A DNA stretch of 64,000 nt from Candidatus Shapirobacteria bacterium (lineage in GTDB: Bacteria > Patescibacteriota > Microgenomatia > UBA12405), in contig JALHFY010000001.1 in NCBI GenBank assembly GCA_022837635.1, positions 454,512 to 518,511 of the forward strand, given 5' to 3'. This document shows positions 8,069 through 63,734 of this stretch, one piece after another. Under the pieces are notes generated by a model. It had not been told where the DNA came from, ran no database searches, and saw nothing but the letters and a program-made list of their open reading frames with translations. Positions within the stretch are counted from its first letter, which is position 1. Each line of letters opens with the position of its first letter. A program made the translations under genes and the position numbers.

Positions 8069-8799
8069 GGGTTGTCGGCAATTTGCGCTTTAACTACTAG
8101 GCGGCGCAAATAAGTACCCGGAGGAGAACAAGTAATTAAAGTCAGGTAACGACCATCAAAACGCTGTTCTAAAACAGAAAGATCGGTAGGCTGGACTTCA
8201 TACATTTCCGAAACTAAATATTTATAACGAACACGGTCATAGTCGACTATAATTTCATCACCTTGTTTAAGTTTATGAAGAGTCGAAAAGATGGTCACAT
8301 AAGATTTAGGATTAAAAAACTGGGGTAAAACAGAGTGACCGAAGATGACCGGAGAACCAAATTGACCAGGCATGGCAGTTTTAGGATATTGAATCAGACT
8401 TTTTTTAAGATCTTCACTACCTAAAACAACTTCAGCGGAATCTATTTTAAGTTTAGGAATAGAAAGACTATAAGAAGCATAGGAGAATGAAGGATTATTA
8501 ACAGTTTTATTGGGGGAGGAATCAGAAGTAGAGATAAACCAATTGGAGAGATTAGTTAAATCAGGAGAATTATCGACAGCTGCTGCTGGATTGTAAAATT
8601 GAGAAGAAAGAGGATTTAGAAGTTGATTAAACTGAGGAGAGTAACCTAACTGAAAATGAAGAATCGGAAAAAGTACTGATAAAAATAGACCAATACCGCC
8701 AATAAAAAGCAAGCTAGCTAACAACCGGCGTTGTTTTTGGCTAAGTTTCTTTTTCAAAGCTGGAGGCTTTGGAGATGATTTAACGTAAAGATAAGCCAT
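8065..8799 (-). CDS. Sortase family transpeptidase (membrane-anchored)
   Basis: N-terminal TM LLASLLFIGGIGLFLSVLF. Catalytic signature ...VIFGHSV... (His), LTLITCSPPGT (TLxTC Cys), YLRRLVV (Arg). Confidence 0.75.
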   Translation of the reverse strand: MAYLYVKSSPKPPALKKKLSQKQRRLLASLLFIGGIGLFLSVLFPILHFQLGYSPQFNQLLNPLSSQFYNPAAAVDNSPDLTNLSNWFISTSDSSPNKTVNNPSFSYASYSLSIPKLKIDSAEVVLGSEDLKKSLIQYPKTAMPGQFGSPVIFGHSVLPQFFNPKSYVTIFSTLHKLKQGDEIIVDYDRVRYKYLVSEMYEVQPTDLSVLEQRFDGRYLTLITCSPPGTYLRRLVVKAQIADNP

Positions 8800-10848
8800 T
8801 TAGAACTGTTGAATAATGGTTATTTTTTCCGGAGAGAGAGGTAAACGTTTCCAAATATTAAAGATAGAAGGGAGAATTTTAATCTCATAATTATAGACTT
8901 GGGGTTGATTTTCAATAATTTTACCGGCATCGCTAATTTTTTGTTTAGTTAAGCGTTGTCGGAGCGGATCTAGATTTAATTTAGGCAAACTTTTACCAGT
9001 AATAGTTAGCTTACCGGTGGATTTTTGAGAAGTATTTTGAGTCGGAGTAAAGGAGAAAGAAAAATCTTTAACTGAGGTAATGGAATTTAAGAAAGCCTGA
9101 TCGTCTTTAAGCAGAGTGTTGATAATTTCCTCATTTTTACTGGGATCAACTTGAAGTAGAGACAGAGTTAAGGTGGCATCAACTTGAAGTTGGTCAGCTT
9201 CTTCTCCGAGTTCCCGATTAAAATCTAACTGTTTTTTATCAATAAAGAGAGTGCCTGGGAGAATACCTTCGAGAGAGGCTTCGGCTTTGATTTTTTCATC
9301 AATACGCTCATCTAGGGAATCAGTCACTCGCTTATTAAGATTAGCCTTGTCAGTTTCAGAAACTACCCGAACCTGACGTTTACTACCACCGGTGATAGGT
9401 GAAGAAGTTTTGGCGTGAAGATTAGAATTTTCTTTGAATGAAAGACGGGCGTCTTGACTTAAGTCATAATCGGAGCCAATATCGGTAGCAATAATATCGG
9501 CTTTGGCCTGACCCATGGTGATGGTGCCAGTGCCAAAATCGATAGTACTAGGAGGAATTTGGGCTGAAGTTAAAAGTTCGTATTGTTTACCGGATTCATG
9601 AAGCAAAAGACTACCTTTGGGTACATTTTGAATTTTATCGCTTTGGTTTAAGACAGTAACTTGACCTTTAGATTTATCACCAGTTTCTTTTTGACCGGTA
9701 GTATCCAAAGAATCGCTAAAATTTAAATTAAGGGTTTTTTTATGAGCCGGAATAGTCTTGTTGCTAAGAGTGTCAGCGTTAGAATCTAGGGTGATATTAA
9801 CATCACGGTTAATTTCTACCGGATTAAAGTTCATAACCACTTCGGCTCGGGTGAGTAAATAAGGTAGGAGTAAAATCAGAGGAGTCAGAGCTAAAGGTAA
9901 CAAAAAAAGCGGATTAAAGGAAAGTTTGGGTAATTTTATGTTTTTAAGGGAAAATTTAGGGAGACTGATTTTGGGGCTGGCTGGAGCTTCCTCAGTTTGG
10001 GGAACAACAAAGCCCAGATCAGCAGGAGCGACTTCAGTTTCAGAGATAGTTAAATTGCTTTCTTCTTCAACAATAGATGTTGTTTCTTCAGGTAGATTTT
10101 CTTCAACTGTTGGTGGTGGTGAAGGAGTTTCATCTGATTGAGCACTGATACTGCGAGTGTAAAGAGCAAAAAGATTGGGAGTGGGATAGGCTTCAACGTC
10201 AGGCAAGTGGAGAAAGGTTTCAATATTTTTTTTACCTATCCATGGGTAATTTTTTAAGTCTTCGATAATAGCATCAGCTATATTGCCAAAAACTAAAATT
10301 CGGGGAGGTAAAGCAGAATCAGTTTGAATGGTCAAGAGAGTATTCTCTAAATCCTGGGGAGTAAAATCAGTAGTTAAAGTTTGGGTCAAACGTTTTTTAA
10401 CTTCACCTAAATAAACTAGAGAAACTGAATATTCCTTTTTACCTAAATGAAGGAGAATAAAAGAAGGCGGAAAGGAGTCTGTTTTACCTAATGCTTCAAT
10501 AAAAGCCTCGTCGTTGCTGATAAAACCCATAGGTTTGAGCTTGAGAGAACGACAGAGATTTTCTAAAAGTTTGAGATAATCTGCGGCAATTTTGCCATCA
10601 CTACCAATCCAAAGAGGAGGCAAAATAAAAGCGGTATCAGCAGGCTCTGCTTCGGGACTGAGGGTAGCTTTATCAGCGGCGGCAGACAAGGAAACGTCGA
10701 CGGAACGCAGAAAAGAATCGGGATCATCGGTGGACCATTCGGTTTCAGGACCAATAGCGATTGGTAAGGAAGTTTGACCTTTTTTAATTAAGGCGACAGA
10801 GAGGGATTCAGGAGTAATGGATACCAACCAATAATAGGACTCAGTCAT
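8800..10848 (-). CDS. Large hypothetical bitopic membrane protein: cytoplasmic N-terminal domain of about 330 aa (possibly actin/FtsA-PilM-like), one TM helix, extracellular C-terminal domain of about 330 aa. Immediately upstream of the sortase.
   Basis: 682 aa. TM LFLLPLALTPLILLLPYLL. No recognisable catalytic motifs. Its stop abuts the sortase start at 8799/8800. Confidence 0.5.
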   Translation of the reverse strand: MTESYYWLVSITPESLSVALIKKGQTSLPIAIGPETEWSTDDPDSFLRSVDVSLSAAADKATLSPEAEPADTAFILPPLWIGSDGKIAADYLKLLENLCRSLKLKPMGFISNDEAFIEALGKTDSFPPSFILLHLGKKEYSVSLVYLGEVKKRLTQTLTTDFTPQDLENTLLTIQTDSALPPRILVFGNIADAIIEDLKNYPWIGKKNIETFLHLPDVEAYPTPNLFALYTRSISAQSDETPSPPPTVEENLPEETTSIVEEESNLTISETEVAPADLGFVVPQTEEAPASPKISLPKFSLKNIKLPKLSFNPLFLLPLALTPLILLLPYLLTRAEVVMNFNPVEINRDVNITLDSNADTLSNKTIPAHKKTLNLNFSDSLDTTGQKETGDKSKGQVTVLNQSDKIQNVPKGSLLLHESGKQYELLTSAQIPPSTIDFGTGTITMGQAKADIIATDIGSDYDLSQDARLSFKENSNLHAKTSSPITGGSKRQVRVVSETDKANLNKRVTDSLDERIDEKIKAEASLEGILPGTLFIDKKQLDFNRELGEEADQLQVDATLTLSLLQVDPSKNEEIINTLLKDDQAFLNSITSVKDFSFSFTPTQNTSQKSTGKLTITGKSLPKLNLDPLRQRLTKQKISDAGKIIENQPQVYNYEIKILPSIFNIWKRLPLSPEKITIIQQF

Positions 10849-42863: not shown

Positions 42864-44891
42864 TTAAGGTAATTGGTAGATGTAGGTGGAACCAGAATTA
42901 AAGACTAAACTAGCATCCAAGTCTTGTAAATTACTTAAATCAATATCAGGATATTTTTCAAATTCCTTGGCACCAATAAAAATATATTTGACCTGGTATT
43001 TGTGAAGAATATTTTTAACTTGAGTTAAGTCTGAATTAATGTTAGACAGAAAGTTGTAGACCTGATCAACTTCAGCGGCACGGGCGGCGGGGGCTTCATA
43101 ACCACCTCGCCAAAGCCATTCATGAACTAACCAACCCTGAATAGTGGGTAAACCAGTGGCCATAGAAACCTGATTAAAGGTGGTATAACTGTCACCACTG
43201 GCTTCTAAAATATGAGGTTGACCGGTGACATTTTGATTGAGCCAGTTAATCGCGGCCAGATTGTCTGGATAGGAAATTTCCAAAAAATTAACACCCCTTA
43301 AGCCCTGATATTTCTTTAATGAATAATAGGATTTGATGGGAAAATAGGTATAAGACATATGTAGGATGAAAACCAAACAAAAAAGCAATTTATACCATAG
43401 GGAAGCTCGAAGACGAATCAAGATATAACCGGCGGCTAGAGAATATAAAACAAAAGCCTGATAAACGAGTTTGAACATGGTATTGGCACGACGATAATCA
43501 AAAACATAAATATCTTTGATGTAGATAATTTCGGGAATAATGATGAGGAAGGAGGCCAGAGCAATCAGAGCAAAAACAAAAAAATCGGTGGGTAAATAAC
43601 GCTGGCGGTGGCGATTTTTAAGAAGAAAAACAATAAAAGGTAAAGAAATTAGCCAAAAACCGCCATAGAGGATAAATAACTGATAAAAAGGACTGTGAGC
43701 ATCGGAAAACATCAGACCTTCCATCATCGGCTTGAAATTGATAGAAAAAGGTAGAGTAAAGACAAACCAAGAGAAGATGGTTAAAATCCCCTGAATAATA
43801 GTTTTTTTAAGATCCTGACTTAAAAGTAAAAAAGTGAGAGCAAATAAAAGACCATAGACGGCAAAATCCCAAGCATTGGTCATATAAGCTAAAGAGAGAA
43901 TAAAACCCGAGGGAATAAAAACAAAAGGAGAGATTTTTTTACTGAGAGCCAAGGTGGCAAATAAAAAGGCGGTAAAAAACAAAACTAAGGGTAAATCATT
44001 GAGGTGCCCATGAAGATCGGCAACTACAAAACTGTAAATAGGAAACTCATGAATATTTTTGTCGGTGGTGTCAGGGTCAAAACCAATAAAACGAGTGGCA
44101 TCAGGATACCAATAATTTTGACTGGCTTGAGCCAAGGTTTCATGATATTTAAGAACTCCCCTACCCAGACGAAAGGCTAAATGAAAGTTGCCGCCAAAGG
44201 TTAAGAGGAGAGCGGAAAACAGCCCGCCGACGATAAAAAATTTACCAGCTTTTTTCTTGAGACTGTGGAAAATAAGATTGGAGGTGAGAGAAAAGGCGGA
44301 AGTGAAACTTAAGGCACACAAGGTAGCAATGGCGAGATTATAAGTAATTTGTGAAGAAATACCGGAAATTTTAGTAACCAGGGCACAAACAAAATGACCA
44401 AAGTAATAATAATTAATGGGTTCACCGGCATACCACATATCAGTGGGAGGAGAAAAGCGACTTCTCAAAATAGTATTGACAAAACCCCAATCCATAAATT
44501 TTTCCAAACCCTCAATGTCAGGAGCAAAGCCACGAAGATAAGACCAGAGAGTCAGAATAATAAAAAAGATAATCTCTTCAAACAGAAAAATCCGCCAATT
44601 TTTTTTGAGAAAATTTTTGAACTCGTGTAAGTTTTTAACAAAAAAACGATAGTTGATAATGCCAAAGATAGCGGCAACAAGTGAAACGCCACCTACAGTG
44701 AAAGGCAGAATCTTGAAAACTCCTAAAACAAAAATCAAATAAGTAATCAGGAAACAAGAAATAGTCTTGGCAAAAATATAGCCTTTATCCCAAAATTTTT
44801 TAAAAATAGAAAAAGTTAGAGGTAAGGACAAAAGGGACAAAACAAAAATAGTGAACCACCAAAAAAAAATGTAGTGAAAGTCAGCCAGCAT
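42864..44891 (-). CDS. DUF2298 / 'YYY-domain' polytopic membrane protein (putative GT-C-fold glycosyltransferase) with a C-terminal extracytoplasmic domain
   Basis: More than 10 predicted TM helices. Motif ...WYAGEPINYYYFGHF... 675 aa. Confidence 0.55.
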   Translation of the reverse strand: MLADFHYIFFWWFTIFVLSLLSLPLTFSIFKKFWDKGYIFAKTISCFLITYLIFVLGVFKILPFTVGGVSLVAAIFGIINYRFFVKNLHEFKNFLKKNWRIFLFEEIIFFIILTLWSYLRGFAPDIEGLEKFMDWGFVNTILRSRFSPPTDMWYAGEPINYYYFGHFVCALVTKISGISSQITYNLAIATLCALSFTSAFSLTSNLIFHSLKKKAGKFFIVGGLFSALLLTFGGNFHLAFRLGRGVLKYHETLAQASQNYWYPDATRFIGFDPDTTDKNIHEFPIYSFVVADLHGHLNDLPLVLFFTAFLFATLALSKKISPFVFIPSGFILSLAYMTNAWDFAVYGLLFALTFLLLSQDLKKTIIQGILTIFSWFVFTLPFSINFKPMMEGLMFSDAHSPFYQLFILYGGFWLISLPFIVFLLKNRHRQRYLPTDFFVFALIALASFLIIIPEIIYIKDIYVFDYRRANTMFKLVYQAFVLYSLAAGYILIRLRASLWYKLLFCLVFILHMSYTYFPIKSYYSLKKYQGLRGVNFLEISYPDNLAAINWLNQNVTGQPHILEASGDSYTTFNQVSMATGLPTIQGWLVHEWLWRGGYEAPAARAAEVDQVYNFLSNINSDLTQVKNILHKYQVKYIFIGAKEFEKYPDIDLSNLQDLDASLVFNSGSTYIYQLP

Positions 44892-44892
44892 T

Positions 44893-45483
44893 TTAATTTA
44901 ATCTAAAAATAAAATTGAATAACTTAATTAAAAAAGGATCGAGAGGAGTGCAGAGATGAAGTTGAGAAACAGCCAGCCAAATTAAAAAACCCATGATAAA
45001 ACCACCAAGGATGTCAGCAAAATAATGAAAACCCATGAGAATGCGGAAAAGGAGTAAGGACAAAGTAATCAATAAAAATAGTAAGGGTGAAAAAACTCCG
45101 GTTTGTAGGACAAGGAAAAAGAAAAAAGCGGTTTTAAGAGCATGACCGGAAGGAAAAGAACCGGTACGATACCAGGAATCTACCAACCCCACAGGAGTGC
45201 CATCATGACGATTAAACATGGGACGACGCCAGAGAACTTTTTTCTTGAGCCACCTTTCCGCAATTTCTCCTAAAATAGTGGCGAACAGTAATTGCCAAAA
45301 AATATGAAAGTCATGACGAATTAGAAGATAAGAGATATAAAAGAAAAAAATCCAAATAATGTAATTGAGAATGATAATCAAAATTTTTCCCAGACGATGA
45401 TGAGATAATATTCTGAGATAGTCGTGTTGTGGTTGCCAGAAAAAAAGATTATTAGTGCTCAATGGTAAGATTATACATGGCAA
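44893..45483 (-). CDS. PAP2-family (type 2 phosphatidic-acid / polyprenyl-phosphate) phosphatase
   Basis: KKKVLWRRP (KxxxxxxRP). TGSFPSGH (PSGH). MGFHYFADIL (SRxxxxxHxxxD-like). Multi-TM. Confidence 0.7.
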   Translation of the reverse strand: MPCIILPLSTNNLFFWQPQHDYLRILSHHRLGKILIIILNYIIWIFFFYISYLLIRHDFHIFWQLLFATILGEIAERWLKKKVLWRRPMFNRHDGTPVGLVDSWYRTGSFPSGHALKTAFFFFLVLQTGVFSPLLFLLITLSLLLFRILMGFHYFADILGGFIMGFLIWLAVSQLHLCTPLDPFLIKLFNFIFRLN

Positions 45484-46610
45484 TGAGAAAAATATTAATT
45501 ACGACACCCTACTTTTTACCAAATATTAGCGGAATTACCATGTACATTGATATTTTGGCAAAAAAAATGCAGGAAAAAAAATATGAAGTCGTAATTTTAA
45601 CTAGTCAGCATGAGAAGAATTTACCTAAAAAAGAGAACTATCATGGTGTAACAATTATTAGAACCAAACCTTGGCTGAAAATCGGCAAGGGTTTAATTTG
45701 TTCAAGTCTTTTATGGCAAGTGCCAATAGAGTGCGCTAAAGCAACAGTGGTTAATTGTCACTTACCTCAATTCGAGGCCGGATGGGTATCTTTTTGGGCA
45801 AAATTTTTTAGAAAAAAATTATTTTTAACACATCACACTGATTTGAGTTTTTGGAAAGGATGGAAAAATAAAATCATTGATAGTAGTGTCTATATTAGTC
45901 AAATGATAGCTGGGATATTAGCTGATAAAATTATTCCTTATACTGCTGATTATGCTCAGAACTCTTATTATCTGAATAAATTTTCCAAAAAGATATATCC
46001 TATTCTGCCACCCATATATTTTGAGAAGCAAAAAAACGAGAGACTGAATAGAAAATTGAAAGAAATAATTAAGGGTAAAAAAAACATAATTGGTTTTTGT
46101 GGTCGAATTGCAAAACAAAAAGGGTTAGAAGTGTTAATAGAAGCTAGTGATTATTTAGAAGATTACCTAATCTTGTTAGCCGGTCCTACTCAAATTATCG
46201 GAGAAAATTATTTTGAATTTTTGCAAAAAAAATATAAAAAAAAGCTGGAAAAGAATTTTGTATTTTTAGGAAACATAAATAGAAATGAACTAGCAACTTT
46301 CTACAAAAATTTAGATGTGTTGGTTTTACCAAGCGATGATAAATTAGAATCTTTTGGTTGGGTTCAGGTAGAAGCAATGCTTTGTAAGGTTCCTTGTGTG
46401 GCTACCAATATGCCAGGAATGAGAGAGCCCATCAGGCTAACCGGTATGGGTATTTTATTTAGAAAAAATGATGCCCAAGATTTGGCTCGAAAACTAAAAA
46501 CAGTATTGAAACAAAAAAAATTTTATACACAAAAATTTAATCCTGACTTAGAAATTTTCCAACCAGAAAGCAGTATTGATAAATATGAAAAACTGTTCTT
46601 CAAAAATTAG
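45462..46610 (+). CDS. Glycosyltransferase family 4 (GT-B fold, GT1 clan). The real start is probably at MRKILITT, position 45483.
   Basis: ...VQVEAMLCKVPCVATNMPGMREPI... (E-x7-E region). 382 aa. Confidence 0.8.
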   Translation: MVRLYMAMRKILITTPYFLPNISGITMYIDILAKKMQEKKYEVVILTSQHEKNLPKKENYHGVTIIRTKPWLKIGKGLICSSLLWQVPIECAKATVVNCHLPQFEAGWVSFWAKFFRKKLFLTHHTDLSFWKGWKNKIIDSSVYISQMIAGILADKIIPYTADYAQNSYYLNKFSKKIYPILPPIYFEKQKNERLNRKLKEIIKGKKNIIGFCGRIAKQKGLEVLIEASDYLEDYLILLAGPTQIIGENYFEFLQKKYKKKLEKNFVFLGNINRNELATFYKNLDVLVLPSDDKLESFGWVQVEAMLCKVPCVATNMPGMREPIRLTGMGILFRKNDAQDLARKLKTVLKQKKFYTQKFNPDLEIFQPESSIDKYEKLFFKN

Positions 46611-47412
46611 ATGTTTATTAAAAAACGAAATTGATCCTGCTTATATAGATAGGGCGGAAATCATTTTGAGGGAAATTTGTAAAACGAAACGAGGTAAATT
46701 TTTGGAGGTCGGTTGTGGGCGAGGTTTTTACCTTAAAGCAGCAGATTTTCTAAGTCCGAATCTAGAAATAATCGGAATAGATTTGAACTCGAATTATCTT
46801 CAAGTGGCCAGAAAATATGTTGATAATCCAAAAATAAAAATTGAAAAAGGAGATGCTCATAAATTAAGATTTGCTAATGAGAGTGTGGATTTAGTAGTAG
46901 CGAGTGAAATTTTGGAACACGTAGATGATGATTTGAAGGTCTTGAAAGAAATGAGGCGAGTCTTAAAAAAGAATAAAAAGGTGATTGTTAGCGTGCCCAA
47001 TCATAATTATCCTTTTTACTGGGATCCTTTGAATTGGATTTTAGAAAAAACAACTAAAAAACATCTTCCAGCTGATAAGTGGTGGTTAGCTGGAATTTGG
47101 GCTGGACATAAACGACTCTATTATGAAGATGAATTAAAAAATAAAATCAAGGCTAGTGGTTTTAAGATAGAAAAAATCTTTCGAACAACACATTATTGTC
47201 TACCAGCAGCACATTTTTTACTTTATGGAATTGGAAAAAACATTGTGGAAAAAGGTTGGCTTAAAGATTTTAATCGCTTTGAAAAGAACAGACAGTACAA
47301 TCATTTTTTACAATTAATTAAAAAAATATTTAATATTTTTGATAAGAAAAACAAAGAAAATTTTGCAAAGGATAAGACTACAGTTGGTTTGGTAATGATT
47401 TTGAAAAAATGA
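46576..47412 (+). CDS. Class I SAM-dependent methyltransferase (Methyltransf_11-like)
   Basis: GKFLEVGCGRGFYL (motif I). ...VVASEILEHVDDDLKVLKEMRRVLKKN (motif post-II/III). Confidence 0.75.
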   Translation: MINMKNCSSKIRCLLKNEIDPAYIDRAEIILREICKTKRGKFLEVGCGRGFYLKAADFLSPNLEIIGIDLNSNYLQVARKYVDNPKIKIEKGDAHKLRFANESVDLVVASEILEHVDDDLKVLKEMRRVLKKNKKVIVSVPNHNYPFYWDPLNWILEKTTKKHLPADKWWLAGIWAGHKRLYYEDELKNKIKASGFKIEKIFRTTHYCLPAAHFLLYGIGKNIVEKGWLKDFNRFEKNRQYNHFLQLIKKIFNIFDKKNKENFAKDKTTVGLVMILKK

Positions 47413-49138
47413 GTACCTGGGGGTGGTCATAGACAGTAAAAGCTTCCTCGGCGGTATCATCACGAAAATAAATGCCGGGATATGAACAATTATGGTCGAT
47501 ATCTAGCCAACTTGTCCTCTGCCCCGGATAATTGGTAGGGCCAAAATAAATACATTGTTTAAGAAAAGGAAGTGATATGCCCGGATAAGATTGAAATCTA
47601 TTGATCAAAGAAAAATTTTTATGACCGGAAAAGAGGTCTTGGTAAAATTGACTGGAGATAGGATAAAAATCGGGAACACGGGGAATACTGGCCCATAGCC
47701 GATTACTGGAGAGAACTAGATAGTCAATTTCATCTAAACTTGAATTGATTTGTTGCCATTTTTGAGGAGTGTCTTGATCAAAGAAAGGTAGAGAAATTAT
47801 CTGATAAGGAGAAGAACCAAGAGGCAGGGCATCATCCCAAGATTCAGCACTTAGTTTTTTGTCAAAAGGGATATTATCTAAAATCCAACGACTGGCCTGA
47901 ACTCGAGAATGAGGACGGGAATAGATTGATAAAAAAGCACAGACTGATAAAAATTGAAGAACTAGAAACCAGGATAGAAATTTTTTGTTGGGGTAGAAAC
48001 GAGTAAAAAATAGTGTAAAAATGAGACCAAGATAAGGATAGATTAGTAAGTAATAGCGCATAGAATGGGAAAATTGTGTTGACTGAAAAACAAACAAAGC
48101 AACAACCCAGATAGCAATAATTAAGACCGGATTAAAATTTAATCGAAGTTTTTTAAAAGATTTAATTAAGAGGATTAAGAAAAAGACACTAAAAGGTAAA
48201 CCCAGTCCCCAGATAAGTAAATTTTGTAAAGGATGAAGAAATAGATTTCGATTTAACCATTGGATTCCCGGTGGATAAAAAGAATCAGGACGAGAATAAT
48301 ACCGGAGAGAATTAAGACTATTTAAGAAATCAGGACTCAGCTGAAAGGAGAAGGAAAAAGTATAAGGTGAAATAAGTCGAAAAAATAAAATTGAAACTAA
48401 AAAGGCAGACAAGGTGGAAAATAAAATGCTGTTTTTTTGTTTAGCTTTTAAGAAAAGCCAGAGCCAAAGTAAAAAAAGAATCGGTAAGAAATAAAAAGCG
48501 GACACTTTACAACTCAGAGCTAAGGCAAAAGCTAAAGAGGCGGGAATAATTTTTTGATAAAGTAAAAGACAAAAACTGAGTAATAAAAAGAAATTTAAGA
48601 AGGTGTCAACGGCAAAGAAGTGTGACAGTTGAACAGGTAAAATTAATAAAGAATAAGTCAGAGGGGCTAAGAGTAAAAAATGAGAACGAGGCCGGAGTTT
48701 TTTGACAATGAAATAAATGATGAAAATATTTAAGGAATCAAAGAGAGCTGACAAAACACGTCCGATTAAAACGAGATGATGATAATTGTTTAAGTTAAAA
48801 ACAACAGCAATGACTTTAGTTAAAAAAACTGGAAAAGTGCCATAGACATAAAAACGATATTGATCATAGTTATAAGGATTGAGAGGTGAAGTGGAATAAT
48901 CAAAATAGTTTTTTAAGCTACTAGGTAAACTAATATCGGTGGCCAACATAGTTAAAAATCTTTCGTCAGGATGGAGATGAAAACCTTGATCCCAATTGAG
49001 ACCATAAATTCTGAGAACAAAAGCGAAAATAAAAATAAGTCCTAAAATAATTTGATGTTTAGTGATGCGAATCATGTTGATAGAGGCGAATAGTCGGCCG
49101 ATCAAAAACCGTCCAAGTTTCTTCGGCGTTTTCACCAT
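47378..49138 (-). CDS. GT-C-fold glycosyltransferase, PMT/ArnT-like (GT39/GT83-like), paralog 1
   Basis: About 13 TM helices. First loop ...LNWDQGFHLHPDERFLTM... Confidence 0.6.
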   Translation of the reverse strand: MVKTPKKLGRFLIGRLFASINMIRITKHQIILGLIFIFAFVLRIYGLNWDQGFHLHPDERFLTMLATDISLPSSLKNYFDYSTSPLNPYNYDQYRFYVYGTFPVFLTKVIAVVFNLNNYHHLVLIGRVLSALFDSLNIFIIYFIVKKLRPRSHFLLLAPLTYSLLILPVQLSHFFAVDTFLNFFLLLSFCLLLYQKIIPASLAFALALSCKVSAFYFLPILFLLWLWLFLKAKQKNSILFSTLSAFLVSILFFRLISPYTFSFSFQLSPDFLNSLNSLRYYSRPDSFYPPGIQWLNRNLFLHPLQNLLIWGLGLPFSVFFLILLIKSFKKLRLNFNPVLIIAIWVVALFVFQSTQFSHSMRYYLLIYPYLGLIFTLFFTRFYPNKKFLSWFLVLQFLSVCAFLSIYSRPHSRVQASRWILDNIPFDKKLSAESWDDALPLGSSPYQIISLPFFDQDTPQKWQQINSSLDEIDYLVLSSNRLWASIPRVPDFYPISSQFYQDLFSGHKNFSLINRFQSYPGISLPFLKQCIYFGPTNYPGQRTSWLDIDHNCSYPGIYFRDDTAEEAFTVYDHPQVLIFSKSLPNQL

Positions 49139-50477
49139 TTAAGAGAAAATCAGGTAAAGGGGAAAACGTATGCCATAGTTGGAAAGGAAGCTTTCCTGAA
49201 AAAAGATCTCGATGGTAAGGTAAATCATAATTTTTAAAGACACGACGAGAAGGCACCAGAATATATTCAGAATTATTGATAAGTGGTTCTAAGAGAGTAG
49301 GATCATAGTTATAAAAATCATAATTAGTAACTTGAAAATTACCTGACAGGGGTAAATTGACGACATTACCCGACTCAGACAAAATAATTGAATTTTGAGG
49401 AATATTTTTTAAGATAAAATCTGAAGCTTGGACCCGAGTATCGGGTAAAAAATAATTAGCAAAAAATAATATTCCTGGTAAAATGGCCAGAAAAATGAGT
49501 TTGGGAAATTTTTTAAGTAAAGGCAAAGATAAAAGAGGTAAAAGAAAAAATAAGGGTGACATAAAACGGGTCCATTTAACATAAAGTTGGCCAAAGTAAA
49601 GAAAATAAACTAAAGAAGAAAGTGCCACAATAAGATTAAGTTTGTTGGAAAAAATTTTTTTAATATTTTTGAGAGAAAATAAACTAAAAATAATAACGGG
49701 TAAACCATTAGTGTAGGGGAAAATTTTAGTAAGCTGGAAAATGTATGGCCAGGTGTCGGCAAATTGTTGGGTGTAAAAAACTGGTAGTTGACCACTAGCA
49801 ACTCCGGTTTCATATTTCATAGAAGAAAGGAAATCAGGCCAAAGAATGAGACTATAAGGAGAAAAAAGTACTGCCAATAGTAGAGTTAAGATTAAAAAAG
49901 GGAGAATTAAATAAAAATTCTGAAAAAGTAATACCAATAAAATAGGACCGGTAAAAATAATTCCAGAAAGTTTGGTGGCCAAAGCAACAGCACTAACGAC
50001 AGAAGCCCATAAAAAATATTTCAATTTGAGCTTGTTTAACATGAGTTTAGCCAGATAGAGATTGATGGCAAAAGTTAAAATCAGTAAAGATTCGGTAGTA
50101 CCGAAATGGGCCAATTGAATTAATCCGGGGGTAAAAATAAGTAAAATAATAAATTTTAAGTTGGGATAAATTTTGTAGAAAAAATAGAGGGAAAGTAAAG
50201 AAAAAAGAGCGGAATAAAATCTTAAAATAAAAACGGAATTGGCAAAATCATTATCAAGACCTAAAAATTTGAGAGTAAAAAAGCCTAAATATAGAGGAAA
50301 TTGACCGTAAGCAAAAAAACGAGGGTTAAGATCTGATAGCTTGAGTTGAGATAAAGATGAGGCCATATTGTTCTCATCAGGGTGAAAAAAATGGCCATCA
50401 CCCCACTTTAATCCAAAAAAACGAGTAAAGATAGCTAGAAAAACAACAATAGTAAGAAAATATTTTTTAGAGGACAT
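49059..50477 (-). CDS. GT-C-fold glycosyltransferase, PMT/ArnT-like, paralog 2
   Basis: Polytopic. First loop ...LKWGDGHFFHPDENNMAS... Same architecture as the downstream paralog. Overlaps it by 80 nt. Confidence 0.6.
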   Translation of the reverse strand: MSSKKYFLTIVVFLAIFTRFFGLKWGDGHFFHPDENNMASSLSQLKLSDLNPRFFAYGQFPLYLGFFTLKFLGLDNDFANSVFILRFYSALFSLLSLYFFYKIYPNLKFIILLIFTPGLIQLAHFGTTESLLILTFAINLYLAKLMLNKLKLKYFLWASVVSAVALATKLSGIIFTGPILLVLLFQNFYLILPFLILTLLLAVLFSPYSLILWPDFLSSMKYETGVASGQLPVFYTQQFADTWPYIFQLTKIFPYTNGLPVIIFSLFSLKNIKKIFSNKLNLIVALSSLVYFLYFGQLYVKWTRFMSPLFFLLPLLSLPLLKKFPKLIFLAILPGILFFANYFLPDTRVQASDFILKNIPQNSIILSESGNVVNLPLSGNFQVTNYDFYNYDPTLLEPLINNSEYILVPSRRVFKNYDLPYHRDLFSGKLPFQLWHTFSPLPDFLLNGENAEETWTVFDRPTIRLYQHDSHH

Positions 50478-51372
50478 AGATGATAGTAATTATCATCAGA
50501 CCCCAGAGAATAATCGAGGCCAATAGCGGAATGTCGGTAGCAATAACTCTTTCTGGACGCTCCCCTTCCTGCATCTCAAAAATAATTTGACCGTAGCGCA
50601 TAATGCCAAAGATGGTTGGGATTAAAGTAACCATCCACCATTTTCTGTCTAAAGCAGCCGGGTAATTTTCTACTAAAAATTCATGAATAATACCACCGAA
50701 ACTGATAGGTTCAGCCAAAAAGGTAAACATGGCATAACAAATAAGGGTGCAGACAGCAAAAATGGTAGTGTAAAAATTCAAAAGGCTTTTATTATAACCT
50801 TCAAGAGCCTTGCGAGTACTGCGACCACTGCGATAAAGCTCACTACGTCTTTTGCCACTAGCTATAAACAAAGATAGAAAAATAACTGCTAACATAATCC
50901 AAACCGGCAAATGATAGCCACTGGCTATTTCACCAGCATAAGTACGAATAATAAAAAAGAGAGCAATACCCATAATGTCCAAAAGTGCTTTCTTTTTAAT
51001 GAAAAAGGAGTAGCTATATTGGAGAAAAATAAAGATAATCGCCAAGCTAAAGAAAGTAGAATTAACCCGAGAAGCAAAGAAAAGTCCCACTAAAAAAAGT
51101 ATGACAGCAGTAATAATGGCGGTTTTTTGGGTAATCGCACCTCGAGCTAAAGGACGGTTTTTTTTGACTGGGTGTAATCTGTCTTTATCAACATCAACCA
51201 GATCATTAACTAAGTAAGAAGATGAAGATAAAAGACAAAAACTAATAAAGGCTAGAAGGCTGGGAAAAAAAGCACTACTGTTGAATAATTGTCCGGTAAG
51301 AATCACTGCCGCAAAAACACTGAGATTCTTGATCCATTGGTTGGGACGAAGAGATTGAATTAGAGCTGACAC
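50467..51372 (-). CDS. UbiA-family prenyltransferase, decaprenyl-phosphate phosphoribosyltransferase (DPPR synthase)-like
   Basis: ...SYLVNDLVDVDKDRLHPVKKNRPLARGAI (NDxxDxxxD). About 8 TM helices. 301 aa. Confidence 0.7.
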   Translation of the reverse strand: MSALIQSLRPNQWIKNLSVFAAVILTGQLFNSSAFFPSLLAFISFCLLSSSSYLVNDLVDVDKDRLHPVKKNRPLARGAITQKTAIITAVILFLVGLFFASRVNSTFFSLAIIFIFLQYSYSFFIKKKALLDIMGIALFFIIRTYAGEIASGYHLPVWIMLAVIFLSLFIASGKRRSELYRSGRSTRKALEGYNKSLLNFYTTIFAVCTLICYAMFTFLAEPISFGGIIHEFLVENYPAALDRKWWMVTLIPTIFGIMRYGQIIFEMQEGERPERVIATDIPLLASIILWGLMIITIIYVL

Positions 51373-51373
51373 A

Positions 51374-52324
51374 CTACAATAATATCAAAAAGCCAAGGAG
51401 AGTGATGATGCCACCAATGATTCCTAAGAATTGTGATGGGAATTCTACCCCAGATTTAGGCAGAATAATGCGGGTGGGAGTGGGTTCCTCGGCAATAACC
51501 TGAGTGGGTACTGGAGTATTGGTTGGAGGAATTGGGGTATTGGTGGGTTGCGGAGCATTGGTTGGTGGGATAGGTGTGGAAGTTGGTTGAGGTGTATTGG
51601 TTGGAGGCACAGGAGTGGGGGTGGGAGTGTTGGTAGGCACTGGAGTATTGGTGGGTTTGGGGGTAGAAGTTGGTTTAGGAGTAGAAGTTGGGATGGGGGT
51701 ATTGGTAGGTTTGGGAGTAGAAGTTGGGATGGGGGTATTGGTAGGAATAACCGGAGCTGGTTCATAACCAAAAATAATCAACCAGTCATTAAAATCATAA
51801 TCCTGAGTAATATCATCGATGACAGCATCTGCCCAGCATTGGATCTGATGAGGACCATCTGATTCCTGTTGGGCGCGAGTGATTTCATTACTTATAGGGA
51901 TGACTGCATTACCATTTTTGCCACAGGTATTACCTGGGGGATTTGGAGCTACCCAACCATAAGCATCGGCAGGATCTCGACTGGCCCTAACTGATAATTT
52001 GTATGTAGCTGGAACAGAACTAGTGCTGAGTAACTGGGAAAAAACTTTAGTAGAATTGATTAGCATGGGGGAGCTACCAGTATTTACCGAGATGACATCG
52101 TTGGGGTTGGCAGTGTTTTGAAGGCGAATAGTAAAGGAATTATCTGAAATTTTAGCAGTGAAAAACATTTTCACTGATTTATTGGCAGCAAAGGTAACAT
52201 GTGGTGGATCAACTCGACTCCTGTCTATGGCTAAACGACGTCTATCCTGATTTTGTTTAACTAAAAATAAAGCCCCTCCTAGAGAAAATAAAAAGAACAG
52301 AAGACTAAGTATTTTGTATTTCAT
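51374..52324 (-). CDS. Secreted protein with an N-terminal globular domain, a long Pro/Thr-rich repeat linker and a C-terminal hydrophobic anchor
   Basis: Signal peptide MKYKILSLLFFLFSLGGALFLV. ...PTNTPIPTSTPKPTNTPIPTSTPKPTSTPKPT... End ...ILPKSGVEFPSQFLGIIGGIITLLGFLILL. Confidence 0.6.
   Translation of the reverse strand: MKYKILSLLFFLFSLGGALFLVKQNQDRRRLAIDRSRVDPPHVTFAANKSVKMFFTAKISDNSFTIRLQNTANPNDVISVNTGSSPMLINSTKVFSQLLSTSSVPATYKLSVRASRDPADAYGWVAPNPPGNTCGKNGNAVIPISNEITRAQQESDGPHQIQCWADAVIDDITQDYDFNDWLIIFGYEPAPVIPTNTPIPTSTPKPTNTPIPTSTPKPTSTPKPTNTPVPTNTPTPTPVPPTNTPQPTSTPIPPTNAPQPTNTPIPPTNTPVPTQVIAEEPTPTRIILPKSGVEFPSQFLGIIGGIITLLGFLILL
51500..51757 (-). repeat. Degenerate tandem repeats encoding P-T-N-T-P-I/K-P-T-S units, including a perfect 36-nt tandem duplication (about 51681-51752)
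   Basis: gtagaagttgggatgggggtattggtaggtttggga occurs twice in tandem. Explains spurious ORFs 51445..51771(-) and 51548..51862(+). Confidence 0.8.
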
Positions 52325-53583
52325 GGTCGATAGTAATATAAGGATATACCAAATAGGGTCATGGCTGCAACAATTATAATGGCGGTAGGCAAAGAATTAC
52401 CACTTTGGTAAAGAGTAGAGGCGGTGGAAATGTCAGCAGTTTTGACGGTAGGTATCGGTGTAGTTGTTGGACTAGGTGGTGATTGGGTAGGTGTTGGAGT
52501 GAGAGTAGCAATAGGTTGAGTGGGAATTAGAGTGGCTGAAGGTGTAGCTGTAAAAGCAATATTACTATTGTTTTGAGTTTGAGAAGAGACATTAAAATTG
52601 ATACTGATAGTATTTTGGGCATCAGAGATAGAAAGCTGATGATCACCTAAAAACAAATCTGTAGCTGGTGACCAATGCCAGGTGTTATCAGCCGGAACGT
52701 GTACTTGGAAAGCCTGATTATCCAAAACTAAGCGGAGGTTGGTACCAGCGGTGGCTTGACCAAAGATATCCGGCCTGCGAGTAGTGATGGTTTCATTGTT
52801 TTTGGGACTAGTAAGACTAAGTGGTACTGAAATAGTTTGCGAAGAAGGAGTGTTGACAGGTAAAGAAGCTACAGAGCGAGTGGATAAATTTTGTTCAGTT
52901 TGGCCAAAAATAATGTCGGGAACAGGATCATTGTTGTCAGTGGTATTGTTAAGAGAAGTAACTTTGTTTTCTGGAGAATAGACAATAATTTCTTCATCAA
53001 GATTGTTGGGAGGAATAAACCAGTTATTAGTTTTGTCGTTAAAACTGTTGGCAAAGGAAATATTCCATTGACCTTCACGGTTGGTAATGGCTGATAAAGT
53101 TTGGCTACCAGGAATATTCAAGTAAACTATAGCTCCAGGCAAGGGAGTTCGGTCAGGGTTAAGTACCTTACCCCAAGCCAAATTAGAAACAGGCACAGAA
53201 CCAGGTGGTTTGAGACCAGTTTTGAGAGTGTAAGAAGATGAGTTGTAATTTTGTCCGCCTGAAATAATGGTCCATTTGTAAGTAGTGTCAGAGGCTAAAT
53301 TACTAACCTGAAAATAATGTGAAAATTCTGAAGGAGAAATATCAGAAACGATCTGACCATTAACTGAGAGAGTTGACTTACAATTTTTGCCAGTAGTTAG
53401 GAATGAATAATCAAATGATGAGTGAGTTAGATTAGTAAACTGAGGATTGATAGGTTCACAACTAGGGCTAGCATCTGAACGAAGGCTGGTTTTTTTGGTT
53501 GTGAGAAAAACTCCTGCTATCAAAATAATCAGCAGAAAAAAAATTCCTAAAATAGTCGGAAGTGTTTTAACGCCTTTTTTCAA
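52321..53583 (-). CDS. Secreted/anchored surface protein with FN3-like and CarboxypepD_reg/Cna-B-like beta-sandwich domains, a PT-rich segment and a C-terminal TM anchor
   Basis: N-terminal anchor LPTILGIFFLLIILIAGVF. ...WGKVLNPDRTPLPGAIVYLNIPGSQTLSAITNREGQWNISF. C-terminal ...TPTPTQSPPSPTTTPIPT...LPTAIIIVAAMTLFGISLYYYRP. Confidence 0.55.
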   Translation of the reverse strand: MKKGVKTLPTILGIFFLLIILIAGVFLTTKKTSLRSDASPSCEPINPQFTNLTHSSFDYSFLTTGKNCKSTLSVNGQIVSDISPSEFSHYFQVSNLASDTTYKWTIISGGQNYNSSSYTLKTGLKPPGSVPVSNLAWGKVLNPDRTPLPGAIVYLNIPGSQTLSAITNREGQWNISFANSFNDKTNNWFIPPNNLDEEIIVYSPENKVTSLNNTTDNNDPVPDIIFGQTEQNLSTRSVASLPVNTPSSQTISVPLSLTSPKNNETITTRRPDIFGQATAGTNLRLVLDNQAFQVHVPADNTWHWSPATDLFLGDHQLSISDAQNTISINFNVSSQTQNNSNIAFTATPSATLIPTQPIATLTPTPTQSPPSPTTTPIPTVKTADISTASTLYQSGNSLPTAIIIVAAMTLFGISLYYYRP

Positions 53584-53761
53584 TCTGATCTAAAACCTGA
53601 ATATTTAAGTTAGGTGAAACTGTCTTGATAAGACTGTAGTCCTCTTGGTGAGTGGAAGCAGAGATTAAGTTTTCATAACTTTTTTGAACAACGAAGAAAA
53701 AGACAGCAATGCAAGTGAGAAGACTAACAAGAATAAAATAACGAGAAAATTGTTTTTTCAT
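53567..53761 (-). CDS. Small single-TM protein
   Basis: 64 aa. YFILVSLLTCIAVFFFVV. Confidence 0.3.
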   Translation of the reverse strand: MKKQFSRYFILVSLLTCIAVFFFVVQKSYENLISASTHQEDYSLIKTVSPNLNIQVLDQIEKRR

Positions 53762-54342
53762 TTCGGCCAGTAATAAACGTTTAAGGGTAAGGAAAGATTG
53801 ATTTGTTGGCCACTACTACTAGCTTCATCAACAGAAAAACTGAGATTATTTAGATCTAAAAGACGACGGCTTTGAAAGAGCTCAGTTAAAAAAGCCATGG
53901 TAGAAGCAAAAGAACTGTTCTGATTTAAGCTGGCTTTGTAAAAAATTTCCTCTTCAGGTAGGTTATATTGTATTTTATTGAAATAAATTTGGTTTTGGGC
54001 TGCAGCAGAAGTAATCAAGGAATTGAGGTTATAAAAACTGGGGTGACTAGGGAGGCTTTCATCAACCAGAAAATATTTTTCTTGAACTTGAGCAAAAAGA
54101 TCCTGGGCAGCAATAATGTCATCGATTTTTTTACGGAGTTGAACTGTGAGAGTTTTTTTATGGCGAATTTCTCCAACTAATTTGGAAATAGTAAAAAAAG
54201 TTGGTTTGATAGCAAAGAAGATGAAAAAAGTGATTAAAAGAAAGGTACCGCCAATTTCTAAGGATCTAGCAAACTTTTGATCTTCCCGCTTTTTTCGCAG
54301 ATAAGCAAACAAGGGACTAAGGTTAGAAAAACTAGGCTTCAC
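53758..54342 (-). CDS. PilO-like bitopic protein (short N-terminus, TM, coiled coil, C-terminal domain)
   Basis: Architecture only. TM TFLLITFFIFFAIKPTFFTI followed by a coiled-coil. Confidence 0.35.
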   Translation of the reverse strand: MKPSFSNLSPLFAYLRKKREDQKFARSLEIGGTFLLITFFIFFAIKPTFFTISKLVGEIRHKKTLTVQLRKKIDDIIAAQDLFAQVQEKYFLVDESLPSHPSFYNLNSLITSAAAQNQIYFNKIQYNLPEEEIFYKASLNQNSSFASTMAFLTELFQSRRLLDLNNLSFSVDEASSSGQQINLSLPLNVYYWPK

Positions 54343-54898
54343 TTTGCTTAAAACTAATAACTACATCAAGATAATATTTATTATCTCGACTTTTCTTTTC
54401 AATACGGCGAACATCAATACTCTTAATATCAGGATTAAGAGAAGCATTGGTAATAAAATTAATGAGAGAACTTTCTTGATAGGAATAAAGCTGAGCCAGA
54501 CAACTTAAATCTGATTTTTCTGGTTGTTTCTTAAAAGAGAGACTTTGAAAAAAGATATCATTAGGGACGGTATTAACTAGAGAGCGGATATAACGGGTAA
54601 AATCAGGTGTATTTTTGTAAAATTTATCAATGTAATTGAGACGTTCCTGAAGAGAAAGATAATCTTTTTCAAATTCCTTGGTGCTAGTAATAATAGCCTT
54701 TTGTTGTCGTAGAGTCTCTGAAAGATCAGCATTTTCTCTGTCCAGCCAAAAACGAGAGAGGAAAGCAAGAATAACAATTAACTCTGTAAAAACAATGACT
54801 ACCCGACCAACCCCAGTAGCCCAGCGCAAAAAACGCGCTAAGGGGCTCTGGCTATTTTCTTCTTGTGGCAGTAAGGATATCTCCTTTTTGGGAGGCAT
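54332..54898 (-). CDS. PilN-like bitopic protein
   Basis: Architecture only. About 30-aa cytoplasmic N-terminus, TM VVIVFTELIVILAFLSRFW, coiled coil. Confidence 0.35.
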   Translation of the reverse strand: MPPKKEISLLPQEENSQSPLARFLRWATGVGRVVIVFTELIVILAFLSRFWLDRENADLSETLRQQKAIITSTKEFEKDYLSLQERLNYIDKFYKNTPDFTRYIRSLVNTVPNDIFFQSLSFKKQPEKSDLSCLAQLYSYQESSLINFITNASLNPDIKSIDVRRIEKKSRDNKYYLDVVISFKQSEA

Positions 54899-63095: not shown

Positions 63096-63390
63096 TTTAT
63101 GACTTTAGTTTGGCGCCTTTGATAATTAACGACTTCGCCACAACTAAGGACAGAGGTAGTATATCATTTCTTCTCAGCCCAGGGGGGATAAGGTTGGTCA
63201 TAATAGGCTCGAGTGGATGAAGTACGACTGTTTCTGAGAATCATTCTGTGTGGATCTGGTTCAACAGAAAATTGAGCGGAAGGAAGAGATGGGAGAGAAG
63301 AAAGTTTTTCTGGTCGACAAAAAAGATTGTTTAAGGTTTTAATTCCATTAAAAATAGGGCGAATGATAGGGAGATGTTCTCGTTTCATTG

Positions 63391-63464
63391 TAGGCATGCA
63401 TGGATTCGAACCATGGACCACCGACTTATAAGATCGGTGCTCTAACCAACTGAGCTACATGCCC
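63391..63464 (-). tRNA. tRNA with anticodon UAU (reads AUA; Ile). No encoded CCA. G1-U72 pair.
   Basis: Minus strand: GGGCATG-TA-GCTC-AGTTGGTTA-GAGC-A-CCGAT-CTTATAA-GTCGG-TGGTC-CATGG-TTCGAAT-CCATG-CATGCCT-A. Cloverleaf folds by hand. Loop CTTATAA puts TAT at positions 34-36. Confidence 0.7.
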
Positions 63465-63491: not shown

Positions 63492-63565
63492 TGGTACAGT
63501 AGCAAGGGCGGGACTTGAACCCGCGACCCCGACGTTATGAATGTCGTGCTCTAACCAACTGAGCT
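63492..63565 (-). tRNA. tRNA with anticodon CAU (elongator Met or Ile2-type). No encoded CCA. G1-U72 pair.
   Basis: GGCAAGG-TA-GCTC-AGTTGGTTA-GAGC-A-CGACA-TTCATAA-CGTCG-GGGTC-GCGGG-TTCAAGT-CCCGC-CCTTGCT-A. Confidence 0.7.
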
Positions 63566-63624
63566 ACCTTGCCTTGATTAAAGTTACGGCATAGCAAGCT
63601 GACCATAACTTAGGGAATTATATC

Positions 63625-63661: not shown

Positions 63662-63734
63662 TGGTTGCGGGGCTGGGAGTTGAACCCAGCCTGTGAGATT
63701 ATGAGCCTCACGTGCAGCCGTACACTACCCCGCA
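63662..63734 (-). tRNA. tRNA with anticodon CAU and genomically encoded 3' CCA (Met, fMet or Ile2-type)
   Basis: TGCGGGG-TA-GTGT-ACGGCT-GCAC-G-TGAGG-CTCATAA-TCTCA-CAGG-CTGGG-TTCAACT-CCCAG-CCCCGCA-A-CCA. Confidence 0.65.

Follow-up and report, generated by a model that had tools for sequence, protein, structure and literature searches.

A stretch of 64,000 nt from Candidatus Shapirobacteria (GCA_022837635.1, JALHFY010000001.1:454,512-518,511; hereafter the window, whose positions serve as coordinates throughout) was analyzed, and we suggest, with a probability of about 0.65, that a gene cluster within it encodes an envelope glycosylation system that uses a lipid-linked pentofuranose. The most likely function of the cluster is the production of polyprenyl-phospho-ribofuranose, or of another pentofuranose in relatives bearing an epimerase, and its transfer by three glycosyltransferases of the GT-C fold onto stalk proteins and/or a wall polymer. 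Gene families were scored with Pfam and NCBIfam profile models, and motifs were read directly in the sequence. Relatives were sampled at one genome per species, which returned 80 loci with UbiA identities of 62-93%, and detailed counts were taken from the 50 complete loci, that is, those having both UbiA and DUF2298. An earlier prediction on this DNA (the original prediction) had listed nine open reading frames (ORFs) of the cluster; all nine were found at the positions it gave, and its family assignments and motifs agreed with the profile scores and with our motif reading. The pathway that it proposed is supported at the computational level, the nature of the sugar, what accepts it, and what PAP2 acts on being predicted from homology and context. 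The genes of the region are as follows.

42864-44891 (-), DUF2298/TIGR03662 'YYY' polytopic protein, predicted GT-C fold (DUF2298 313 bits; TIGR03662 437.9 bits)
44893-45483 (-), PAP2 membrane phosphatase (Pfam PAP2 46.6 bits)
45462-46610 (+), GT4 cytoplasmic glycosyltransferase of the variable cassette (Glycos_transf_1 113.6 bits)
46576-47412 (+), class I S-adenosylmethionine methyltransferase of the variable cassette (Methyltransf_11 77 bits)
47378-49138 (-), predicted GT-C paralog 2, 586 aa (by homology to paralog 1; no Pfam match)
49059-50477 (-), predicted GT-C paralog 1, 472 aa, with an HPDE motif (PMT_2 22.1 bits, cut-off 26.1)
50467-51372 (-), predicted UbiA-superfamily polyprenyl-phosphate 5-phosphoribosyltransferase of the decaprenyl- or polyprenyl-phosphoribose (DPPR/PPPR) synthase type (Pfam UbiA 91 bits)
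51374-52324 (-), predicted secreted Pro/Thr-stalk protein, 316 aa, with C-terminal LPKSG and a hydrophobic tail; candidate acceptor
52321-53583 (-), predicted secreted Ig-like-domain Pro/Thr-stalk protein, 420 aa, with a sorting-signal-like tail; candidate acceptor
53567-53761 (-), 64-aa single-pass membrane protein overlapping both of its neighbors, absent from the earlier list
53758-54898 (-), PilO-like and PilN-like bitopic proteins (two genes), at the head of the packed gene string

The predicted donor synthase and phosphatase

The UbiA protein scored 200.9, 193.6, and 157 bits against the NCBIfam models of decaprenyl-phosphate phosphoribosyltransferase (DPPRS) and 163 bits against NF006088, a model named merely 'UbiA family prenyltransferase', while all other named UbiA subfamilies (heme O synthase, 4-hydroxybenzoate prenyltransferase, chlorophyll synthase, menaquinone, and archaeal lipid/GGGP models) stayed at or below 53 bits. 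Its top match among solved structures was Rv3806c of M. tuberculosis (8j8j) with an E-value of 1.3e-37, the next UbiA enzyme following at 2e-9, and the identity to Rv3806c is only ~30-35%. The first Asp-rich motif was read as N56-D57-x-x-D60-x-x-x-D64. The contacts of Rv3806c with phosphoribosyl pyrophosphate (PRPP) and magnesium are K28, N73, D77, R82, K87, R90, Q135, Y138, K143, and K208 (PMC10994848), and in our alignment they map to K15, N56, D60, R65/K70/R73, Q118, Y121, K126, and K188 of the UbiA protein. Every one of these contacts is kept or conservatively replaced, with a single R-to-K exchange, and the residues are invariant in 21 relatives. The model scores, the Rv3806c match, and the kept contacts place the protein with the DPPR synthases and not with the quinone, heme, or chlorophyll prenyltransferases, as the original prediction had supposed. 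Since its scores lie slightly below the NCBI equivalog cut-offs, the protein is best regarded as a predicted divergent member of the DPPRS family rather than a strict equivalog.

The PAP2 protein contains all three catalytic motifs of its family, KKKVLWRRP, PSGH, and R-x5-H-x3-D (RILMGFHYFAD). Its gene is present in 48 of the 50 complete loci, lying directly upstream of DUF2298, between the cassette and that gene. The association with UbiA mirrors the pairing of Rv3806c with Rv3807c described in mycobacteria (PMC11127046), and from this context we propose that PAP2 removes the 5-phosphate from lipid-linked phosphoribose in the manner of Rv3807c.

Based on these observations, the UbiA-type enzyme would move 5-phosphoribose from PRPP to polyprenyl phosphate on the cytoplasmic face, a step for which the homology argues strongly, and PAP2 would then strip the 5-phosphate and leave polyprenyl-phospho-ribofuranose. 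The lipid carrying the sugar would presumably be undecaprenyl, in contrast to the decaprenyl of mycobacteria. When the ORFs of the window were scanned against Pfam, no FAD_binding_4/ALO or adh_short match that could represent DprE1 or DprE2 was found, in agreement with the original prediction. Because the cluster of the window has no epimerase, the sugar probably remains ribofuranose, perhaps modified by the GT4 enzyme and the methyltransferase. The donor would be carried outward by some flippase. The sole MOP-family gene of the window is MurJ, which exceeds the MurJ equivalog cut-off (265.7 against 235.55 bits) and is probably the lipid II flippase.

A DPPRS-like protein with 31% identity to the UbiA protein of the window is also encoded at positions 901-1716 of MT837543.1 (L085), an unverified and unannotated 'Bacteriophage sp.' contig from human feces.

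Predicted GT-C proteins and candidate acceptors

Sequence-profile searches of the three polytopic families against solved structures gave nothing significant (the best match was Pmt2 at E=0.39), and the fold was therefore tested with predicted models. The model of paralog 1 was of high confidence and all of its matches were GT-C enzymes, with Pmt4, Pmt2, and Pmt1 among the top ones, so that paralog 1 is predicted to adopt the GT-C fold. Paralog 2 is assigned to the same fold by its full-length homology to paralog 1 (hhalign probability 100, E=2e-67, 24% identity). Both proteins carry HPDE straight after the first transmembrane helix; the P-D-E of this first outer loop is invariant in the 43 and 44 orthologs of the two paralogs, and H-P-D-E-R is invariant in the 44 orthologs of paralog 2. 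Since these orthologs align from about residue 22, the true start of paralog 2 is probably near 49075, at the second Met.

The third polytopic protein, DUF2298, scored above the TIGR03662 (chlor_Arch_YYY) cut-off of 300.25 bits and contains the NYYY motif. Its high-confidence model matched GT-C enzymes exclusively, and the protein is predicted to be a GT-C-fold glycosyltransferase whose outer C-terminal domain resembles that of AglB/STT3. Hence the GT-C fold expected of the polytopic proteins is borne out for paralog 1 and DUF2298 by models and for paralog 2 by homology. No homology between DUF2298 and the paralog pair was detected by hhalign. The DUF2298 family is large, with 7343 representative clusters at E<=1e-3. 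In 6 of 120 homologs, and in 5 of 49 loci, a LysM peptidoglycan-binding module lies within the outer C-terminal domain; it is absent from the DUF2298 protein of the window. The LysM-bearing relatives include P0241, P0243, and those at loci L003, L007, and L014, one of them being 93% identical.

The original prediction had described the paralog pair as resembling protein O-mannosyltransferases (PMT) and ArnT. The GT-C fold and the shared HPDE motif stand, while PMT_2 is below threshold in paralog 1 and paralog 2 has no Pfam match at all. Orthologs of the pair carry a GT39 annotation, and the pair shares its fold with the PMTs of GT39, as well as the DE motif located in the first outer loop. Unlike these enzymes, the pair is below threshold in Pfam and has no MIR domain. 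The GT2-type polyprenyl-phosphate-mannose synthase that would be the partner of a PMT was not found in the window, where the linked donor synthase is instead a predicted phosphoribosyltransferase. When compared by hhalign with the GT-C proteins beside DPPRS in Lactococcus, a haloarchaeon, and Marivivens, the paralogs showed no similarity to them. In the proposed mechanism, the two paralogs and DUF2298 would pass the sugar to envelope acceptors, for which the Pro/Thr stalks of two probably sortase-anchored proteins and/or a peptidoglycan-associated polymer are the candidates.

The two candidate acceptor proteins are built alike: an N-terminal signal or anchor is followed by a folded part and a Pro/Thr stalk, and the C-terminal tail resembles a sorting signal. 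The peak fraction of Pro plus Thr within 40 residues is 0.72 in the 316-aa protein and 0.57 in the 420-aa protein, and the latter shows weak matches to Big_13 and CarboxypepD_reg. Among orthologs of the 420-aa protein, 57 of 70 contain [ILVMP]Px[TSA]G in the last 42 residues, and in the tails inspected this motif precedes a hydrophobic stretch and basic residues. The 316-aa protein has LPx[TSA]G and a hydrophobic or transmembrane C-terminus in 34 of the 35 loci having the gene. In the window itself, the 420-aa protein carries the variant LYQSG with a tail ending in YYYRP, and the 316-aa protein carries LPKSG without a basic tail. Because these sortase-type signals are conserved, both proteins are probably wall-anchored stalk proteins. 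The secreted, anchored, Pro/Thr-rich character given in the original prediction is therefore retained, with the anchors refined to probable sortase-type sorting signals rather than membrane anchors alone. The 420-aa protein occurs in nearly all 80 loci, and the 316-aa protein is absent from about half of them.

A sortase of class E/C/D-like type, scoring below the subfamily cut-offs, is encoded at 8065-8799 (-) and could be the anchoring enzyme of both stalk proteins. It lies directly downstream of a 682-aa protein (8800-10848, -) that lacks Pfam matches and has a membrane segment in its interior. Elsewhere in the window, 3105-4973 (+) encodes a secreted LamG/fn3 protein with a (PT)n run of about 60 residues. 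The genes at 5039-5518 (+) and 2292-2990 (-) encode a 232-aa secreted protein that also has a Pro/Thr-rich linker and a small Big_13/CarboxypepD_reg-like protein similar to a portion of the 420-aa stalk protein.

All genes in the string that runs from the PilN-like gene to GT-C paralog 2 overlap or lie 1 nt apart, the latter being the distance between the 316-aa gene and UbiA, and MurJ is located 24 nt upstream of the PilN-like gene. The PilO-like protein scored 21.3 bits, under the cut-off of 22, and a weak PilN match appears in orthologs only. In every relative, the PilO-like, PilN-like, and 64-aa membrane proteins are flanked by MurJ on one side and the stalk proteins on the other, and a small ORF occupies the place of the 64-aa gene in most of them. 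It is uncertain whether the PilN/PilO-like genes belong to the system. A link to type IV pili was considered and is unsupported beyond these weak PilN/PilO-like matches, as no core pilus genes were found in the window.

Locus conservation and relation to known systems

The gene order anticipated in relatives was recovered in 80 species-level genomes, all of them Shapirobacteria, Woesebacteria, or Microgenomates. The near-universal order begins with MetRS, pointing the opposite way, and continues in one direction with MurJ, the PilN-like and PilO-like genes, the small ORF, the 420-aa protein, the 316-aa protein where present, UbiA, and two GT-C genes; the variable cassette follows, and then PAP2, DUF2298, UvrD, FemAB, and GatCAB. 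In the 50 complete loci, PAP2 was counted 48 times, the two paralogs 47 and 49 times, GT4 26 times, and the methyltransferase type of the window 5 times. In two species (L062 and L077), UbiA is followed directly by PAP2 and DUF2298 without the paralog pair; as these three genes are kept together where the pair is absent, they look like a minimal set. Median identity across the loci was highest for UbiA at 67.9%, a ranking biased toward this gene since the loci were picked by UbiA similarity, and was 64.8% for UvrD, 60.6% for MurJ, 55.8% for DUF2298, 49.7% for PAP2, 48.5% and 43.3% for the GT-C paralogs, and 37.9% for the 420-aa protein. Among the related bins, many bear the title 'uncultured Gammaproteobacteria bacterium' or 'Candidatus Methanoperedens sp.' (for example L005, L007, L010, and L008); these are likely mislabelled, as both their gene content and their sequence similarity point to Shapirobacteria/Microgenomates.

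The cassette slot lies between paralog 2 and PAP2, and its content differs by species. It holds GT4 enzymes, class I or FkbM methyltransferases, a PF01370 epimerase, extra PMT_2-type or unclassified polytopic proteins, a HAD-like phosphatase, or DUF362. In the window it consists of the GT4 gene and the methyltransferase gene, without an epimerase, and at other loci FkbM or other methyltransferases stand at the place of this methyltransferase. The GT4 enzyme and the methyltransferase thus belong to the variable cassette and not to the conserved core, a caveat on the pathway as proposed. In 13 loci a PF01370 NAD-dependent epimerase of the short-chain dehydrogenase/reductase (SDR) type, with TGGSGFLG and YGESK motifs, lies directly upstream of PAP2, and in these relatives it would alter the sugar. 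Variation of this kind is typical of hot spots at which surface glycans diversify. For the GT4 protein of the window, the sole match at E<=1e-25 among 72,556 plasmids was a Marivivens GT4, 32% identical over the full length, whose gene is followed directly by those of a DPPRS and a PAP2-like protein (L089, NZ_CP018573.1, 6840-9262). That this only plasmid match adjoins a DPPRS suggests a GT4 subfamily dedicated to, or travelling with, the DPPRS-type synthase.

Pentofuranose systems as described by Kelly et al. in 2024 consist of a polyprenyl phosphoribose synthase and a phosphatase, a MATE flippase, a GT-C of family GT136, and optional epimerases, and in Citrobacter one SDR epimerase suffices to turn ribofuranose into xylofuranose (PMC11127046). 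The cluster of the window shares with Citrobacter youngae O1/O2 (ORF15-ORF14-ORF12 with or without ORF13) a UbiA-type synthase and a GT-C encoded with it. For the window it is further predicted that, as in Citrobacter, PRPP is converted into polyprenyl-phospho-ribofuranose with removal of the 5-phosphate and the donor is used outside the membrane by the GT-C. The optional SDR epimerase also has its counterpart in the PF01370 SDR of the relatives, with its TGxxGxxG and YxxxK motifs. However, Citrobacter has a fused HAD phosphatase domain where the window has a separate PAP2 membrane protein, and a MATE flippase where the cluster of the window has no MATE gene. The single GT136 of Citrobacter contrasts with three conserved GT-Cs, DUF2298 and the unnamed PMT-like pair, which are probably of other families. 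The host of the window is moreover of monoderm type without O antigen, and the system that is a serotype-specific accessory in Citrobacter belongs here to the conserved core of a whole class.

The mycobacterial decaprenyl-phospho-arabinose pathway differs in possessing DprE1/DprE2, which were not found in the window, and the GT-C proteins of the window have no sequence-level membership in the Emb/Aft families. As far as it is described where PMC11127046 cites it, the O-arabinosylation of group IV pilins in Pseudomonas aeruginosa uses TfpW together with DPPRS and DprE homologs. There a DPPRS-type donor feeds a GT-C acting on Ser/Thr of a surface protein, and the window likewise has adjacent Thr-rich stalk proteins and PilN/PilO-like genes; unlike that system, it contains no pilin, PilB, PilC, or PilT genes and no DprE homologs, and its PilN/PilO matches are below threshold.

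Further DPPRS modules were found in a plasmid collection, and together such modules span Lactococcus, Bacteroidota, Alphaproteobacteria, and haloarchaea. Lactococcus cremoris pF27D encodes DPPRS, a HAD phosphatase, GtrA, and an unnamed polytopic protein within a wall-polysaccharide cluster; Chondrinema has DPPRS, DprE1/E2-like enzymes, two GT39 proteins, and DUF2723; Marivivens has an EamA transporter, GT4, DPPRS, and a PAP2-like protein; and haloarchaeal megaplasmids of Halostagnicola/Natronococcus have a GT39 or dolichyl-phosphate-mannose (DolP-Man) transferase, an oxidoreductase, DPPRS, and a PHP phosphatase. What these modules have in common with the window is a DPPRS, at least one GT-C, and a phosphatase, which in the modules is of the HAD, PAP2-like, or PHP type; some also include an epimerase. 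They differ in their small GtrA/EamA flippase candidates and in the families of their phosphatases and GT-Cs, and DUF2298 occurs in none of them. The 'divergent PAP2' of Marivivens, considered as a relative of the window PAP2, proved to be unrelated to it. By this comparison, the cluster appears to follow the logic of the pentofuranose systems, and of arabinan donor synthesis in mycobacteria, with different parts, namely a mycobacteria-like PAP2, three GT-Cs that are probably of other families, and no flippase gene of its own.

The original prediction had regarded such a system as possibly new for a reduced genome of the candidate phyla radiation (CPR). The generic system is not new, having been described in 2024 (PMC11127046), and similar modules exist in several phyla and in archaea; for CPR bacteria, our literature searches found no paper describing such a cluster, and the text and supplement of Kelly et al. 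contain no CPR, PAP2, or DUF2298 example (PMC11127046). The system therefore appears to have been undescribed in CPR bacteria until now.

Competing readings and further features of the window

Several observations weigh against a pentofuranose system. The UbiA scores of 200.9 and 193.6 bits lie under the NCBIfam equivalog cut-offs of 207 and 234, respectively. The housekeeping genes flanking the cluster are as syntenic as the cluster itself in the 80 loci, so that synteny alone is no proof of coupling to the PilN/PilO-like or Pro/Thr-rich genes. Pfam and NCBIfam scans revealed no MATE, SMR, or GtrA flippase gene within the window, and the activity, the sugar, and the acceptor are all predicted from homology and context. 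The first two points would also fit a reading in which no system exists, UbiA being an ordinary quinone, heme, or ether-lipid prenyltransferase whose neighbors are together through regional synteny only. We consider this highly improbable, given that the quinone, heme, chlorophyll, and GGGP models reach at most 53 bits against 157-201 for the DPPRS models, that the PRPP-specific residues are kept, and that in unrelated phyla, too, this kind of enzyme is accompanied by a phosphatase and GT-Cs. A further difficulty comes from DUF2298. When we sampled a distant clade of this family (80 loci at 30-34% identity, with Firmicutes-like neighbors, in metagenomes of gut and bioreactor origin), no UbiA/DPPRS or PAP2 was found nearby in any locus; most often the neighbors were an unnamed polytopic protein, in 46 loci, and a small GT2, in 26. 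The DUF2298 gene of a Pseudobutyrivibrio plasmid likewise sits in a GT2-rich polysaccharide cluster without UbiA. A general coupling of DUF2298 to a UbiA-type synthase was accordingly rejected, and since these copies go with GT2, the donor of DUF2298 is not intrinsically a pentose. DUF2298 is best described as a GT-C taking lipid-monophosphate sugars, whose donor-synthase partner varies by lineage, and the prediction of a pentose rests on context within the Microgenomates clade. It follows naturally to ask whether some or all of the GT-Cs use a polyprenyl-phospho-hexose made by a GT2 encoded elsewhere, with UbiA and PAP2 feeding one of them or another lipid-linked product, and the GT39 annotation of the paralog orthologs points the same way. 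We regard such mixed donors as unlikely, because neither the window nor the core of the 80 related loci contains a GT2 polyprenyl-phosphate glycosyltransferase, UbiA is the sole lipid-donor synthase of the conserved core, and UbiA, PAP2, and DUF2298 stay together where the paralogs are missing.

Within the pentofuranose system that we prefer, two versions of the acceptor have to be weighed. One is protein O-pentosylation, in which the GT-C paralogs would modify Ser/Thr in the stalks of the adjacent, probably sortase-anchored proteins and possibly in further proteins with Pro/Thr linkers; analogous cases are the arabinosylation of Pseudomonas pilins by TfpW and PMT mannosylation in Actinobacteria. 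The other is a wall glycopolymer, in which a pentofuranose-containing polymer on peptidoglycan or lipid would be primed, extended, and branched by the three or more GT-Cs, as Emb/Aft enzymes build mycobacterial arabinan, or as side chains are added to wall polysaccharide. Each version is possible at well below even odds. The Pro/Thr-rich genes lie 1 nt from, or overlap, the next gene of the string, the 420-aa protein is present at nearly all loci, its putative sorting signals and those of the 316-aa protein are conserved, and the structural matches are PMT-like, all of which favors a protein acceptor, as does the precedent of DPPRS-dependent pilin O-glycosylation, in so far as PMC11127046 cites it. 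Yet the 316-aa protein is missing from about half of the loci, the synteny of the entire region extends to unrelated housekeeping genes, and the structural matches do not tell protein-modifying from glycan-modifying GT-Cs. Moreover, unlinked secreted proteins of the window also have Pro/Thr-rich linkers, which weighs against the wider proposal too, and such linkers therefore seem to be a general trait of the surface proteins of this genome. A wall polymer would account for the several GT-Cs per locus with extras in the cassette, for the LysM module in the DUF2298 outer domain of close relatives, for the flanking MurJ and FemAB, and for the location of the Lactococcus and Marivivens modules within polysaccharide clusters; the better conservation of UbiA compared with UvrD or MurJ also suggests a core envelope role, although it is inflated by the choice of loci. 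Against this, no initiating transferase, LCP ligase, or polymer exporter was found within the window, and LysM occurs in a minority of orthologs that does not include the window copy.

To our knowledge, almost nothing is known of the surface chemistry of CPR (Patescibacteria) bacteria, whose lifestyle depends on cell-surface contacts. The pentofuranose system suggested here makes a concrete and testable prediction, namely that the glycoconjugates of these cells contain ribofuranose, or another pentofuranose, derived from PRPP. It also places DUF2298, a family of thousands, among the GT-C glycosyltransferases using lipid-linked sugars, with a donor-synthase partner that seems swappable, being GT2 in the Firmicutes-like clade and UbiA with PAP2 in Microgenomates. 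The species-variable cassette suggests diversification of surface antigens, perhaps under phage or host pressure. While the system will hardly surprise a glycobiologist after 2024, it provides a handle on the envelope chemistry of CPR bacteria. As a more speculative extension, which we offer tentatively, Microgenomates (Shapirobacteria and Woesebacteria) might have a conserved and possibly essential pentofuranose envelope layer, either a ribofuranan- or arabinan-like polymer or pentosylated stalks, built from a PRPP-derived donor; DUF2298 and the new PMT-like pair would then be unrecognised pentofuranosyltransferases, and the cassette would diversify the sugar by species.

The Pfam scan of the window ORFs agreed with the description of the cluster as a block amid housekeeping genes. 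The rest of the window encodes GatCAB, two UvrD-type helicases, DnaK/DnaJ/GrpE/HrcA, NusA, IF2, and PNPase, and further housekeeping genes are those for RNase J, tRNA synthetases, FtsK, YceG, and TsaD/E. ARAGORN detected a tRNA-Ile with the anticodon TAT at 63390-63464 (-), beside two tRNA-Met(CAT) genes at 63499-63573 and 63662-63734. A tRNA-Ile with a UAU anticodon is uncommon in bacteria, in which AUA is usually decoded by a lysidine-modified CAT tRNA.

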